The notes under the pieces are model-generated. The model was given only the letters and a program-made list of their open reading frames with translations, did not search any database and was not told where the DNA came from. Of a stretch of DNA of 11,410 nt, positions 3,030 through 10,647 are shown one piece after another. The translations under genes were made by a program, and so were the position numbers. The DNA is from a virus (lineage: Duplodnaviria; Heunggongvirae; Uroviricota; Caudoviricetes), in the IMG/VR virus record IMGVR_UViG_2585427732_000018; one strand, written 5' to 3'. Within the stretch, counting starts at the first letter, position 1. Each line of letters opens with the position of its first letter.

Positions 3030-3315
3030 AAACCGCTTGCAAAAAATTATCACGGGGCTGTATGCTTCCCCCGTCGCCCACATGGCGACCGGGTTTAGCA
3101 GCCTGAATACATCTGGCGGACAGCCGCCCACATCCGATAAGCGGTTTTTTTGTGTCCGTAAACCTACCCATACCCGCATTATGGCGGGGCGTAACGGGGG
3201 AGCCTTTGTGCTCGCTGGTTTCCAGATGACCAGTCTGCTAACCCTGTTACGTCTCGCCACCATGTTTAGCAGCGTAGTAGCGAGACTCCTTAAAATTCAT
3301 CTGGGAGCCTTTCAC

Positions 3316-3486
3316 ATGGCTGTATTCGCACGCCCTTATTTTGTCTGGCGCTTTATGCAGTGCCTGACAGACAGTATTGCAATATTCACCGTTACCGCTG
3401 CCACTGAGCGCGAAGCACGTGCACAGCTGCCGCACGCACATCTTATTTTTGTCGCCCGTATTCGCCAGGGGGGGAGTCATGCATAA
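3316..3486 (+). CDS. Icd-like small protein, copy 2 (short form; the track ORF 3022-3486 may be an N-terminal over-extension)
   Basis: 56 aa from the ATG at 3316 with GGGAG SD 8 nt upstream; FVWRFMQ...ATEREARAQL...FVARIRQGG parallels copy 1. The upstream 3022-3315 part of the long ORF looks non-coding (hairpins, repeated motifs). Confidence 0.55.
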   Translation: MAVFARPYFVWRFMQCLTDSIAIFTVTAATEREARAQLPHAHLIFVARIRQGGSHA

Positions 3487-7157: not shown

Positions 7158-7364
7158 ATGGCTGAAGAGAAAAAAGGCGGTGTTTCGGTGTACATAAGCC
7201 CCGAAATCGTGGAGGTGCTCAAGCAGCGCCACAAAAAAAACTATGAGGCTGGCGTGGCGGCTGGACTGGATCCGCTGATGACGCCGGAGCCGTCGATAGG
7301 TTCACTTGTACGCTCTTATTTACTTGCGGCGCTTGGGATGCATAAAAATTATGGGGGTGAATAA
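7158..7364 (+). CDS. Small RHH-like protein (68 aa), first gene of the capsid operon
   Basis: GVSVYISPEIVEVLKQ (beta strand plus helix) and SIGSLVRSYLLAALG (helix) suggest a ribbon-helix-helix fold; stop overlaps the capsid gene start by 1 nt. Confidence 0.5.
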   Translation: MAEEKKGGVSVYISPEIVEVLKQRHKKNYEAGVAAGLDPLMTPEPSIGSLVRSYLLAALGMHKNYGGE

Positions 7365-8419
7365 TGGCAGGCAAAGCAACGGCACTTAACACTAACCAGC
7401 TTTTCATGTACCTGAATCGCGGGGATATTGCGGATTTTAAATTCAGCCCTCTGTTTACCACGCTGTTTTTCCCGAACGTGGCGACATTCAGCACGCAAAA
7501 CATCATGCTGGATACCCTGGACATTGAAGAAGTCACCATGTCGGCGTTTTGTTCGCCTATGGTGGGTAGCCAGGTTCAGCGCGATAAAGGGTACGAAACC
7601 AGCACAATCAAACCTGGCTACATGAAGCCAAAGCACGAAATCGATCCAACGAAAACCATCATGCGCATGGCTGGAGAAGATCCGGCACAGCTTAACGACC
7701 CTACCTATCGCCGTATGCGCCTGATTACTGGCAACATGCGCCGCCAGATAAACGCCATTAAGGCACGCGTGGAATGGCTGGCGGTGAATGCGGTAACGAC
7801 CGGAAAAAACATCATTGAGGGCGAAGGCATAGAACGCTATGAAATCGACTGGAAAATACCGGAAAACTGCATCATAGAGCAGGCCAAGGGTAAAAAATGG
7901 TCCGAGCAGGATAAAGACATGCACGACCCAATCTATGACATCGAGCTTTATGCTGATCAGGCTGGTTGCCCCGCAAACGTCATGATTATGGGCGCTGAGG
8001 TATGGCGCACATTACGCAGCTTTAAAAAATTCCGTGAGCTGTACGATCTTTCCCGTGGTTCAGAATCCGCCGCCGAACTGGCCTGTAAAAACCTGGGCGA
8101 AGTGGTGAGCTTTAAAGGCTATCTTGGTGATCTGGCCCTTATCGTCTATTCCGGCAAATACACTGACAGCGATGGTACCGAAAAATATTTCCTTGAGCCT
8201 GATTTGCTGGTCCTGGGTAACACCAACAATAAAGGGCTGGTGGCCTATGGTGCGATAATGGATCAGGAAGCGGTAAGAACGGGCGCAACACAAAACATGT
8301 TTTACCCGAAAAACTGGATTGAGGACGGCGATCCGGCGATTGAGTACGTGCAGACACACAGTGCACCGCAGCCGGTACCGGCAGATATTCGCAAATTTGT
8401 TACCGTCAAAATTGGTTAA
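7364..8419 (+). CDS. Major capsid protein, phage lambda gpE-like
   Basis: 351 aa; long colinear matches to lambda gpE as I recall it: DFKFSPLF..LFF; SP.V...V.R.......IKPGYMKPKHEIDP; EDP..L.DP.YRR.R; WSEQDK..HDP..DIE.YA; RGSES....A.K.LGE.VSFKG..GD.A.IVYSG.Y; YPKNW...GDPA.E. GGGGGTGA SD upstream. Confidence 0.9.
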   Translation: MAGKATALNTNQLFMYLNRGDIADFKFSPLFTTLFFPNVATFSTQNIMLDTLDIEEVTMSAFCSPMVGSQVQRDKGYETSTIKPGYMKPKHEIDPTKTIMRMAGEDPAQLNDPTYRRMRLITGNMRRQINAIKARVEWLAVNAVTTGKNIIEGEGIERYEIDWKIPENCIIEQAKGKKWSEQDKDMHDPIYDIELYADQAGCPANVMIMGAEVWRTLRSFKKFRELYDLSRGSESAAELACKNLGEVVSFKGYLGDLALIVYSGKYTDSDGTEKYFLEPDLLVLGNTNNKGLVAYGAIMDQEAVRTGATQNMFYPKNWIEDGDPAIEYVQTHSAPQPVPADIRKFVTVKIG

Positions 8420-8431
8420 CGGGGGAATTCT

Positions 8432-8767
8432 ATGGACACTCCATACATTGAGTTATTTGCAGGCAGTCAGCAGGTATCCACGACGTTGGTACATTTTGCC
8501 GCTGATGCTGGCGTTATTCAGGAATTTACCCCGCTGATGCTGGCAGACAATGGCGAGTTTAAGCCGTGGGATGGTCAGGAATCTGGCAAGGCTGTTTATC
8601 TGACCTCGTACCCTGTGGACACGTCAAAGCAGAAATCAGCACAGTGTTACAAGACGGGGATATTCAATATTGCCGCCGTTAACTGGCCTGAGAGCGTCGA
8701 CACCGATGCGAAAAAATGCGCCGCCTTTGCGGGTTCCGGCGTATCCGTTCAGCCGCTGGCCCGATAA
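8432..8767 (+). CDS. Head decoration protein, phage lambda gpD-like
   Basis: 111 aa, about the size of gpD; conserved TPLMLAD...WDG, YKTG.F, WPES.D.DAKK.AAFAGSG motifs; GGGGGAA SD upstream. Confidence 0.8.
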   Translation: MDTPYIELFAGSQQVSTTLVHFAADAGVIQEFTPLMLADNGEFKPWDGQESGKAVYLTSYPVDTSKQKSAQCYKTGIFNIAAVNWPESVDTDAKKCAAFAGSGVSVQPLAR

Positions 8768-8779
8768 GCAGGGGGAACG

Positions 8780-9193
8780 ATGGCAACGAATGAAAGCATC
8801 ATGACGCTACCGCTGGCGAGTAAATTTAAAGCCGAAGCGCGGGCAATGGCTGACAGAGGTTTATCAACCTACGAGGCCGTATATCAACTCAACAAACTGG
8901 AAGAGCAGGACAAGCCGCGCGCTGATGCGATTATGGCGCTTCATGAGCATAAAGACTATCAGCCGCTGTTGCGTGCAATGGCAAACGTGCCTTGTATCGA
9001 TGTTGATACGGCTAAAAACATCCTGAACATGACCATAGAGCAGGAACGCCCGAAGGTTGCACCAGAGCTTACCGCAGCCTTTGAAAACTTTATGGACATG
9101 CACAGCCCACAAACCGTATCAGCTGGCATGGCATACGATGGCAGAAACCCAGGCGATGACGGCGACATCGATCGCATACTGAAAACCATCTGA
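8780..9193 (+). CDS. Hypothetical protein (137 aa), predicted helical, in the capsid operon
   Basis: Same GGGGGAA SD as the two upstream genes; followed by a terminator. Occupies the position that lambda gpFI holds after gpE, but I see no sequence similarity to gpFI. Confidence 0.6.
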   Translation: MATNESIMTLPLASKFKAEARAMADRGLSTYEAVYQLNKLEEQDKPRADAIMALHEHKDYQPLLRAMANVPCIDVDTAKNILNMTIEQERPKVAPELTAAFENFMDMHSPQTVSAGMAYDGRNPGDDGDIDRILKTI

Positions 9194-9198
9194 GACAA

Positions 9199-9221
9199 GG
9201 CCGGAGAAATCCGGCTTTTTT
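9199..9221 (+). terminator. Rho-independent terminator after the capsid operon
   Basis: GCCGGA-GAAA-TCCGGC hairpin plus TTTTTT; near-identical to the terminator at 6758-6781. Confidence 0.7.
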
Positions 9222-9222
9222 G

Positions 9223-9290
9223 CGGGTCCTTCCTGGAATTATGGCCCGTTACGGGGCGGCGACCTCGCGGTTTTTCGCTATTTATGAGCT
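9223..9290 (+). other. cos site (forward copy): cosN cohesive-end sequence GGGCGGCGACCT at 9254-9265 with lambda-like flanks
   Basis: CCCGTTACG-GGGCGGCGACCT-CGCGGTTTTTCGCTATTTATGA matches the phage lambda cos junction as I recall it; similarity to lambda stops about 30 bp to the right of cosN. Confidence 0.8.
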
Positions 9291-9398
9291 TTTTCAGGGG
9301 GGTGGTGGTGGTTTTGTTGTTTGCTCTATCTTTATGAATGAAAAGGGAAAGATGCAAACAATACACCAACCTGAAGCAGTAATTAAGTTGGTGTATTA

Positions 9399-9941
9399 AT
9401 GAAATCGCACCTGATGAACAAAAAAAACATGGCGAAAAGCTGCCGTGTAAGTGCGACAGCGTTCGACAAGTGGGGAGTGACTCCCGTTGAACGTAAAGGC
9501 CGTGAGGCGTTTTACGATGTTGCCAGCGTGATAGACAATAGGGTTAACAATGCAATTAGCCAGCTTACAAACGACAAAGGCGATATTGATGATGATGAAC
9601 TCTTACGAGTCAGGATCAGATTACTGACAGCACAGGCGGAGGCGCAGGAACTTAAAAACGAGCGCGATCGCGGTGACGTGATTGATACTGAGTTTTGCCT
9701 GTACGCGCTTTCAAAGCTGGCGAGTCAGATTTCATCAATCATGGACAGCCTCCCGCTTACTATGCAAAGGAGCTTCCCACAGATTACCCCCGCCATGCTG
9801 GATAGGCTTAAAAGGGAAGTGGTTAAAGCCTGTAATGCCAGTGCCAGAGTTGCCGACAACCTCCCACAGATACTGGCTGATTACTTGAAAGAAACAACCG
9901 GAAACGTACCGGAAAAGTTGCTACAGAAGAAAGGCGAGTAA
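9399..9941 (+). CDS. Terminase small subunit homologue (lambda Nu1-like); candidate packaging-redirection (Rpp-type) protein
   Basis: 180 aa; C-terminal two thirds (LTAQAEAQELKNERDRGDVIDTEFCLYALSKLASQISSIMDSLPLTMQRSFP) closely parallel lambda Nu1; N-terminal wHTH region is much more diverged. Alternative starts at 9414 and 9429; no strong SD for any. Confidence 0.8.
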   Translation: MKSHLMNKKNMAKSCRVSATAFDKWGVTPVERKGREAFYDVASVIDNRVNNAISQLTNDKGDIDDDELLRVRIRLLTAQAEAQELKNERDRGDVIDTEFCLYALSKLASQISSIMDSLPLTMQRSFPQITPAMLDRLKREVVKACNASARVADNLPQILADYLKETTGNVPEKLLQKKGE

Positions 9942-9964
9942 CAGACGCGCAATTATTGAACAAA

Positions 9965-10163
9965 ACTGAGAAACGACATGAAAGCGTCATAAATCGCCAT
10001 TTTAGATGATTACCGTGTCGTTTCTTTTTATTGTGTATCTATTTAAAAACAAATAGTTATGTTCGAGAAGTACCGACATGCTTTTTCCAGAAAAATTTTC
10101 ATAAACAGATAAAAACCGCGAGGTCGCCGCCCCGTAACGGGCCATAATTCCAGGAAGGACCCG
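9965..10163 (-). other. cos site (inverted copy) with lambda-like cosB architecture; cosN core at 10121-10132 (minus strand)
   Basis: 10111-10163 is the exact reverse complement of 9223-9275 (53 bp). Read on the minus strand, the flank continues with ATCTGTTTATGAAAATTTTTCTGG, an R3-like TCGGTACTTCTCGAACATAACT, an AT-rich TTGTTTTTAAATAGATAC and an inverted repeat AGAAACGACA/TGTCGTTTCT (9969-9978 / 10016-10025), resembling lambda R3-I1-R2-R1. Confidence 0.75.
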
Positions 10164-10196: not shown

Positions 10197-10478
10197 ATGA
10201 CAGAAGCCGAAATACTGGGATTAATCCGCCGTGCTGGTGGAATCAGCCAGCAGACTGACGAACAGGCCACGCAGCCGGACAGCGTGACAGCCGAAAATTA
10301 TGCGCGTGTTGTTGCTGAGGTGATGCGCCGTGATGGTATCCAGCTTAATGATGTGGATATGCGCAACATACGGATCCGCGTTCTTGAAATGCTGGCCTAC
10401 CGTCGCCGCGTGCAGACGTACAGGGAAAAAGCAAAAATTACGTACCACTGGAAGAAGCCGGAGCGGTTACGGCGGTAA
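10197..10478 (+). CDS. Hypothetical protein (93 aa)
   Basis: GGGGG SD upstream; lies between the inverted cos and the right-end repeat array. No family recognised. Confidence 0.5.
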   Translation: MTEAEILGLIRRAGGISQQTDEQATQPDSVTAENYARVVAEVMRRDGIQLNDVDMRNIRIRVLEMLAYRRRVQTYREKAKITYHWKKPERLRR

Positions 10479-10647
10479 CTGGTTGATATTTTCGAAATTC
10501 GCCAGCGGCGAACATCGGGGAAACCAGCCTAACCCGTTGATATTTTCGGGAACCTCAAATTGAGGAGGTCGGAAACATAACCCGTCATATTCTGGATGCT
10601 GATAATTACCACGCAGCCCATTAAGGCCTAACCCGTTGATTCTTCCC
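10477..10647 (+). repeat. Four phased direct repeats (TAACCCGTTGATATTTTCG-like) at about 50 bp spacing
   Basis: Copies at about 10477, 10529, 10577 and 10627; also palindromes TTCGCC-AGC-GGCGAA (10495-10509) and GCGCAA-AA-TTGCGC (10700-10713). Confidence 0.6.

Follow-up and report, generated by a model that had tools for sequence, protein, structure and literature searches.

A complete Nu1-family small terminase gene with an adjacent, probably cognate cosB occupies the rpp slot of an Escherichia coli phage-inducible chromosomal island

The 11,410 nucleotides analyzed here, called the window throughout, come from the IMG/VR virus record IMGVR_UViG_2585427732_000018 and represent an Escherichia coli phage-inducible chromosomal island (PICI) of the EcCICFT073 type, integrated beside tRNA-Pro between yejM and yejO. 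Islands in complete E. coli genomes are 96% identical to the window over 94% of its length. It encodes an integrase, a DUF4222 protein, a D5-type primase, a single-stranded DNA-binding protein, a lambda E-like major capsid protein and a lambda D-like decoration protein, followed by a 137-residue protein, the open reading frame (ORF) at 9399-9941 that is the subject of this report, and a 93-residue protein. The ORF is intact and encodes 180 residues, and its near-identical RefSeq copies carry the label "terminase small subunit". We call the gene terS and its product TerS, for small terminase subunit, with TerL for the large one. The ATG at 9399 lies directly downstream of a cosQ, a cosN and a cosB with R repeats, and an inverted repeat of 72 nt (9223-9294 and 10092-10163, 92% complementary) flanks the gene. 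Both arms of the repeat are cosQ-cosN cores with the lambda cohesive-end sequence GGGCGGCGACCT, and the 2 cos sites, cos1 and cos2, are convergent. The features of the locus are as follows, where DBD is the DNA-binding domain and wHTH the winged helix-turn-helix.

9223..9294, plus strand: cos1 core, one arm of the 72-nt inverted repeat, which aligns to lambda cos as well as to the cos sites of satellites and N15-type prophages
9224-9233, plus strand: cosQ-like GGGTCCTTCC of cos1
9254-9265, plus strand: cosN cohesive-end sequence GGGCGGCGACCT of cos1
9276-9287, plus strand: I2-like CGCTATTTATGA of cos1
9296..9398, plus strand: cosB1, the cosB of cos1, satellite-specific, unlike lambda cosB and colinear with cosB in N15-type-TerS prophages
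9304-9316, plus strand: R3-like GGTGGTGGTTTTG of cosB1, bp 51-63 from the nick
9359-9371, minus strand: R2-like GGTTGGTGTATTG of cosB1
9386-9398, plus strand: R1-like AGTTGGTGTATTA of cosB1, the third copy
9399..9941, plus strand: terS, encoding a 180-residue Nu1-family small terminase subunit, from homology, purifying selection and RefSeq labels
9399-9563, plus strand, about residues 1-55: TerS wHTH DBD of the N15/D3 type, from homology
About residues 56-125 of TerS, plus strand: central helical region, conserved
9774-9938, plus strand, residues 126-180: TerS C-terminal third, variable
9942..10091, minus strand: cosB2, the cosB of cos2, phage-type, aligning with lambda R3-I1-R2-R1
9966-9980, minus strand: R1 of cosB2
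10013-10027, minus strand: R2 of cosB2
10041-10061, minus strand: I1-like element of cosB2
10064-10080, minus strand: R3 of cosB2
10092..10163, minus strand: cos2 core, inverted, the second arm of the 72-nt inverted repeat
10121-10132, minus strand: cosN of cos2
10153-10162, minus strand: cosQ-like element of cos2
9296..10085, no strand: putative exchangeable packaging-specificity cassette (cosB1, terS, cosB2), in place of the rppA cassette of EcCICFT073

The Pfam family Phage_Nu1 (PF07471) matches TerS at residues 33-148 only, scoring 83 bits against a cut-off of 30 (E = 2 × 10−23), and PHROG 57, "terminase small subunit", matches residues 1-174 with E = 3 × 10−53. By these profile scores the satellite protein is a member, above the curated threshold, of the Phage_Nu1 or lambda-type small terminase family, and it would share with lambda gpNu1 the succession of a wHTH, a helical assembly region and a C-terminal region. 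BLASTP against lambda Nu1 gives 35% identity with E = 2 × 10−34, and the similarity is spread unevenly. Identity is 31% for residues 1-55, a stretch in which lambda has 16 residues more; residues 56-100 and 101-140 reach 44% and 45%; residues 141-166, corresponding to the lambda TerL-binding region, fall to 27%; and residues 167-180 are a 14-residue tail with no lambda counterpart. Aligned as a whole to the lambda TerL-binding region, the C-terminal third gives 27-32% identity. Relative to lambda Nu1, the alignment indicates that the most rearranged part of TerS is its N-terminus.

A first-pass annotation, made from the letters alone, had taken the C-terminal two thirds to be close to lambda Nu1, with a conserved contact to the helper terminase, and had proposed alignment by domain as a check. 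Run against lambda Nu1, this alignment bears out the homology and the non-uniform similarity, but closeness is too strong a word even for the middle of the protein, and the extreme C-terminus is as diverged as the DBD. The C-terminal roughly 40 residues of Nu1 bind gpA, according to the lambda/21 chimera literature summarized in PMC9026076, and the region where a TerL contact is to be expected turns out to be the least conserved part of TerS, contrary to the annotation.

The same annotation called the N-terminal wHTH only weakly similar. That is right against lambda, with its 31% identity and 16-residue indel, but the domain is no novelty or orphan. TerS has its best phage match in N15 gp1, to which it aligns without a gap, at 46% identity overall (E = 2 × 10−53), 53-56% in the DBD (53% for residues 1-55) and only 35% in the C-terminal third. 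A tblastn search of residues 1-69 against 50,697 phage records returns N15-type and Pseudomonas D3-like TerS only, at 50-60% identity, and not one of the lambda type. TerS has the short DBD of this N15/D3 type with the xxAFDKWG recognition helix, whose AFDKWG core is common to N15 gp1 and the satellite proteins; the helix reads xTAFDKWG in satellite TerS and xQAFDKWG in 55 of the 59 N15-class phage copies. The C-terminal 68 residues match E. coli lambdoid phages best (PhiR5_1 53%, PhiR12 phages 49%, lambda 39%), and the C-terminal third is closest to PhiR5_1 at 56%. Between the two ends, about residues 66-125 are the part best conserved with lambda-, 21- and PhiR5_1-type TerS, with 42-66% identity and a common RL..AQA.AQELKN motif. 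From the alignments, TerS is a true mosaic of an N15/D3-type DBD and a C-terminal half from another lineage. Searched against the Protein Data Bank (PDB), the TerS family profile finds residues 1-98 of lambda TerS (6HN7_B) with E = 6 × 10−6, and 1J9I with E = 0.2. The predicted secondary structure of the DBD, beta-H-H-beta-beta-H, is compatible with a wHTH.

To see in what company such a protein occurs, we use 64 loci encoding an N15-type TerS, collected by scanning a single genome from each species and by looking up contigs. All copies at least 54% identical to the window ORF stand in a satellite context (major capsid protein, decoration protein, x, TerS) with no gpA homologue, and all copies at most 49% identical are followed directly by a gpA-type TerL. 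The satellite context is conserved across genera. The ORF list and family scans give no gpA/TerL homologue in the window, and tblastn gives no gpA homologue in the satellite loci L007-L012. The window island has what marks a satellite TerS in general, namely a TerS homologue in an element that encodes no TerL; in N15, gp1 is followed by TerL (gp2).

Such an orphaned gene might be the non-functional relic of the left end of a degraded prophage. It would be in keeping with that explanation that no terL is adjacent and that the island also has capsid genes, whose EcCICFT073 counterparts c1499 and c1500 were deleted without a phenotype (PMC6092414). We give this next to no credence: the terS ORF is intact in hundreds of genomes, its satellite context is kept across genera, and dN/dS among 5 E. 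coli alleles is 0.12-0.24 overall and less than 0.3 for each of the thirds, which puts all of the protein under constraint. The gene is real and under purifying selection.

Constraint goes together with exchange of parts. Identity among the satellites is 65-95% in the DBD and 64-93% in the middle region, but 36-92% in the C-terminal third, and the TerS of the Superficieibacter locus L012 joins a satellite DBD to a lambda-type C-terminal third with 74% identity to lambda Nu1. For the more diverged among the 5 E. coli alleles, dS is about 0.12-0.3 in the N-terminal third versus about 1.0 in the C-terminal third. This contrast in dS indicates intragenic recombination and not relaxed selection. 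The mosaic pattern is beyond chance, as it recurs across the satellite family and is also seen at synonymous sites. Variable and recombining as it is, the C-terminus would fit a module that is matched to different helper TerLs, while the conserved DBD and cosB1 would fit a private specificity.

The next point is which site this DBD would read. The window has the module order of lambda (cosQ, cosN, cosB, terS) and its R3/R2/R1 orientations of plus, minus, plus; its cosQ is closely similar to that of lambda and the 12-nt cosN cohesive-end sequence is identical, but its R sequence is unrelated, and no terL stands beside its terS. In an alignment of the cos regions of N15-type-TerS prophages and satellites, cos1 is colinear from cosQ via R3 to the inverted R2. 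R3 lies at bp 50-65 in lambda and at bp 48-60 in N15 (PMC9026076), and the window R3 is at the same place. N15 has there the related motif GAGGTTGTTGTTT (bp 48-60), where the window has GGTGGTGGTTTTGTTGTTTG (bp 51-70), although N15 has one R element and the window 3 R-like elements.

The phages of the N15 class and the satellites differ in the R core. Exact GGTTGTTGT is found within 300 nt upstream of terS in 53 of the 59 phage loci with the N15-type DBD class, and in none of the controls lambda, PhiR5_1 and a 21-like prophage. In the window and all other satellite copies, the exact GGTTGTTGT form of the N15-class R element is absent. The satellite copies, the window included, have GGTGGTGGT at the R3 position where the phages have GGTTGTTGT, and CAATACACC(A/C)AC at R2 (window 9359-9371); the variant R core at R3 and R2 is GGTGGTGGT / GGTTGGTGT. 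A TTGTTGTTT core lies 9 bp beyond the R3 position in the window cosB1. Over the 11.4-kb window, GTTGGTGTATT and TTGTTGTTT occur in the cosB1 region only, and each of the degenerate patterns has a single stray match. R3 and R2 of cosB1 are conserved in 5 E. coli TerS-type PICIs. All this points to a satellite R site that would be related to, but distinct in specificity from, that of the N15 class. The private R-site variant co-occurs with the private helix variant in all satellite copies, and the combination of the helix T with GGTGGTGGT R sites suggests, as a hypothesis, that the satellites have their own version of the N15-class code. The phage TerS of L023, in which T replaces the Q, was considered as an independent test of this covariation, and it is uninformative, having no cos near its terS. 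By eye, and with no computed search, there is no convincing match to the IHF consensus between R3 and R2.

The other cos site is of a different kind. Over 152 nt, cos2 shares 83% identity with the cos of Escherichia phage PhiR5_1, its R3 and I1 hardly differ from their counterparts in the cos of CFT073 prophage 4, and its R elements (CATGTCG... / AAACGACA) are of the lambda/21/PhiR5_1 type, which accompanies lambda-type DBDs. It varies independently of TerS: the O157-type island L072, with a 98% identical TerS, has another R type in its cosB2 (CAGATCC...), the islands L073 and L075 lack cos2, and one island has differing cosN sequences. Hence cos2 behaves as an independent module. The likeness of both cos2 and the TerS C-terminus to PhiR5_1 suggested a single helper lineage, which we rejected as a firm claim; since cosB2 differs in L072 and cos2 is missing from L073 and L075, the 2 are not taken to mark the same helper.

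That TerS has its cognate site in cos2 (9942-10091) and not in cos1 is something we consider very improbable. The site adjoins the 3' end of terS and has 3 clear R elements, but sites of the GGTTGTTGT type accompany this DBD class at 53 of the 59 phage loci and sites of the lambda type never do, and cos2 is swapped or missing in islands whose TerS is nearly identical. A complete phage-type cosB (R3-I1-R2-R1) in cos2 could also mean that the island is packaged through cos2 by the helper TerS, leaving the satellite TerS as an interference decoy that titrates helper TerL or blocks assembly of the helper terminase. Both EcCICFT073 cos sites are functional when cloned (PMC6092414), and PICIs generally interfere with their helpers. 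We nevertheless hold a decoy to be improbable, because cosB1 with R elements of the DBD class is conserved in all 5 E. coli TerS-type islands, while cos2 is absent from 2 of them (L073, L075) and of another R type in a third (L072), and because a pure decoy would have no need of a conserved DBD with a site of its cognate class. In TerS, the DBD is the best-conserved part.

The position of terS is best described by comparison with EcCICFT073, the model Gram-negative PICI. The window and the right half of EcCICFT073 have a common gene order of a 68-residue ORF, the major capsid protein, the decoration protein, the 137-residue ORF, cos1, either rpp or terS, cos2 and the 93-residue ORF. They are 93-94% identical up to 9295, in the cos1 core, and again from 10086, in cos2; the 790 bp between these points in the window are unrelated to the 662 bp (cosB1, rppA, cosB2) of CFT073. 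The window cassette is bounded by the inverted cosQ-cosN cores, and terS occupies the exact position of the 144-residue RppA gene (PMC6739421). The same inverted, convergent cosQ-cosN cores are seen around rppA in EcCICFT073 (L005, about 2529-2600 and 3276-3340). A further observation concerns the EcCICFT073 cos1 at L005 2606-2625, the proposed R3 region of Rpp, which contains CACCACCACCAC, and this is, on the other strand, the GGTGGTGGTGG that TerS-type satellites have at the R3 position (window 9301-9313); the terS and rpp cassettes thus have a (GGT)n tract in common, at the same distance from cosN and in opposite orientation.

Among 5,426 complete E. coli genomes, megablast finds the terS cassette in 487 (at least 80% of the cassette), O157-type strains among them, and the rppA cassette in 53, making the terS cassette about 9 times commoner than that of rppA; those of RppB and RppC diverge too far for a megablast count.

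The slot invites comparison with the Rpp proteins (RppA/B/C), and the first-pass annotation had proposed an Rpp-type redirecting protein that gives helper packaging another DNA specificity. The location agrees with Rpp: next to a PICI cos1 whose cosB differs from that of the helper, between inverted cos1 and cos2, with packaging redirection as the presumed role (PMC6739421). The protein does not. TerS has no similarity to RppA (BLASTP E = 1.4; hhalign probability 0.1%), sequence and profile searches of the PDB with TerS at E up to 10 return no Rpp chain, although the profile finds the lambda TerS chain of 6HN7, an entry that also contains an Rpp chain, and no Rpp homologue is found elsewhere in the window. 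Rpps are 135-153 residues long with their own C-terminal coiled-coil dimerization region and no TerL-binding domain, and they act by forming heterodimers with helper TerS (PMC6739421, PMC9026076); TerS has 180 residues and, in its central and C-terminal regions, the Nu1 type of sequence, and as a complete homologue of Nu1 it differs from Rpps in size and architecture. We therefore reject membership in the Rpp family. The logic of redirection survives, in view of the rppA slot, the non-lambda cosB1 and its R elements of the DBD class. On these comparisons the satellite TerS is a positional alternative to Rpp, not a family member, and it is probably a functional alternative as well.

A protein unrelated to Rpp could still work as Rpp does, as an adaptor that acts only together with helper TerS. 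Mixed oligomers formed through the central region would prefer cosB1 and be poisoned for the phage cos, and the helper TerS would provide part of the TerL contact. The slot is identical to that of rppA, transfer of EcCICFT073 requires helper TerS (PMC6092414), and the extreme C-terminus is poorly conserved with phage TerS; moreover, the central region at about residues 66-125 is the part best conserved with phage TerS (42-66%), which makes hetero-oligomerization plausible. Set against these are the lack of Rpp homology and a Nu1-type C-terminus, a region Rpps do without (PMC9026076), that is kept under purifying selection (omega 0.13-0.28). In lambda TerS, the DBD is contacted by Rpp at about residues 50-70, with escape mutations at Y50, A55 and E65 in lambda TerS and D68-R70 in phage 80 (PMC6739421), and that segment is largely absent from the N15-type DBD of satellite TerS, so an Rpp-like DBD heterodimer with a lambda-type TerS would be unlikely. 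Overall, we regard an adaptor as unlikely, though not negligible.

The explanation we prefer, and consider fairly likely, is that ORF 9399-9941 encodes a functional satellite TerS that forms one module with cos1 and steers the helper packaging motor to the island. Family membership, DBD class, the matching cosB class, the position in the cassette, purifying selection and the missing terL in the satellite loci examined are all observed. The N15/D3-type winged helix would bind the satellite R elements of cosB1 (the GGTGGTGGT-type R3, the inverted R2 and R1), and the Nu1-type central and C-terminal parts would assemble with a large terminase that comes from the helper and not from the island. Helper TerL would then nick the helper-type cosN of cos1 and package island concatemers rightwards. 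In this way, packaging would be redirected to the island without the cosB specificity of the helper, moving the TerS strategy of SaPIs (pathogenicity islands in Staphylococcus aureus) to lambda-type cos packaging. DNA binding at cos1, contact with TerL and independence from helper TerS are what we infer here.

Several points weigh against this explanation. Islands of the EcCICFT073 type need helper TerS (PMC6092414). The TerS C-terminal region is only 27-42% identical to any phage TerS examined, which makes compatibility with a given helper TerL uncertain, and prophages with terminase of the best-matching phage type, PhiR5_1, are rare (38 of the 5,426 genomes). The covariation between DBD and R site (Q to T with T to G) comes from a single satellite clade and amounts to one evolutionary event. 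The AlphaFold2 model of TerS, built from a 20-sequence alignment, is poor (pLDDT 60, pTM 0.34), hence the fold is supported by sequence homology and predicted secondary structure only; a Foldseek search of this model against the PDB gives only non-significant helical-bundle matches, from which we draw no conclusion. Expression is also a difficulty. A promoter scan finds no sigma-70-type promoter for terS, and the terminator-like hairpin upstream of cos1 leaves transcription of terS or rpp in need of an explanation. That feature is the following.

9197..9221, plus strand: terminator-like hairpin (AAGGCCGGA-GAAA-TCCGGC, then a T run) between the 137-residue ORF and cos1, with an RNA fold of -18.4 kcal/mol (z -2.7)

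The hairpin is also present in EcCICFT073, and its terminator function is putative. Closer to the gene, R2 and R1 make a perfect 11-bp palindrome with the arms 16 nt apart (9360-9397; RNA fold -14.5 kcal/mol, z -3.9), the 3' arm of which overlaps the probable Shine-Dalgarno sequence immediately preceding the ATG of terS. From the fold prediction, this structure could affect terS translation.

The redirection of helper packaging by a satellite-encoded TerS is already known as a strategy, though among lambda-type cos satellites it has yet to be described. The pac-type TerS_S of SaPIs follows the logic that is proposed here, of a satellite TerS, a satellite-specific site and the helper TerL (PMC6092414, PMC6739421), but SaPIs use headful packaging, have an unrelated TerS family and add Ppi, which blocks phage TerS, whereas the window is of the cos type and keeps a helper-type cosN and cosQ. 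Capsid-forming PICIs (cf-PICIs) are likewise satellites of Proteobacteria that encode a TerS (bioRxiv 10.1101/2022.09.08.507074); they add HNH, TerL, portal, protease and connector and need only helper tails, whereas the window has the major capsid-like and decoration-like proteins and TerS only. Some Gram-negative PICIs are known to contain a terS homologue (PMC6092414), and our literature searches turned up no functional work on any Nu1-type TerS from a cos PICI.

Gram-negative cos-type PICIs are now explained by one mechanism, in which Rpp reprograms helper TerS. Within one island family, the slot of Rpp is often taken by a complete Nu1-type TerS that has a cosB of its own, which would be a second and mechanistically simpler route of redirection. 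If so, the island should transfer with a terS-deleted helper, and T20Q together with a change of GGTGGTGGT to GGTTGTTGT should swap the specificity. The features of note are a cosB code private to the satellites, a cassette exchanged with that of Rpp and a pair of convergent cos sites, and more tentatively they may be parts of one arrangement. The inverted cosQ-cosN cores might delimit an exchangeable packaging-specificity cassette in which Rpp and complete TerS are alternative alleles. The TerS allele might free the island from helper TerS by a private code (helix T20 plus GGTGGTGGT) distinct from lambda-type helpers and all N15-type phages, with a recombining C-terminus retuned to helper TerLs, and the convergent cos2 might be a second route, dependent on helper TerS and in the opposite direction. 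The terS locus is a natural system for mapping which TerS residues serve cosB specificity and which TerL partnering, with relevance to the mobility of virulence islands and to the engineering of PICI-based delivery vehicles.

Satellites of the TerS type are also found inside prophage late genes (L007-L010, L073), in the major capsid gene E in Enterobacter/Citrobacter-type contigs and in the portal gene in E. coli VL7S7. Satellites embedded in this way are the helper-embedded PICIs of PMC10111431, where the 11capE element is described as being without terS; L007-L010 and L073 are relatives of these that do carry it. At the yejO site of E. coli W12-1, the TerS-type island L074 has a ClpP-protease/major-capsid fusion gene replacing the E-like and D-like genes. 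The cosN sequences of this island differ, reading GGGCGGCAGACG and GGGCGGGAGCAT, which suggests an adaptation to a different helper TerL.

As to the neighbors of terS in the window, the lambda E-like and D-like capsid genes lie at 7364-8767, while the island has neither a portal nor a protease nor a TerL; the capsid genes are the homologues of c1499 and c1500. The 137-residue protein (8780-9193), upstream of cos1, belongs to PHROG 1999, of unknown function, and weakly matches head-maturation protease/scaffold proteins at their C-terminal end (PHROG 53, E = 4 × 10−9); it may be a scaffold-like fragment. Mirror-image ORFs run across the cos cores at 9220-9399 on the plus strand and 10002-10145 on the minus strand, both with the peptide MARYGAATSRF, which lies at the N-terminus of the minus-strand ORF and starts at residue 8 in its plus-strand counterpart. 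Some RefSeq records have an ORF call of about 69 residues across cos1, at the corresponding position; the mirror-image ORFs are probably not genes. Downstream of the 93-residue ORF, near the right end of the island, TAAC(T/C)(G/C)GTTGAT(A/T)TT is repeated at 10476-10494, 10530-10548 and about 10629-10645, and these repeats could be putative binding sites of a recombinase or a regulator.

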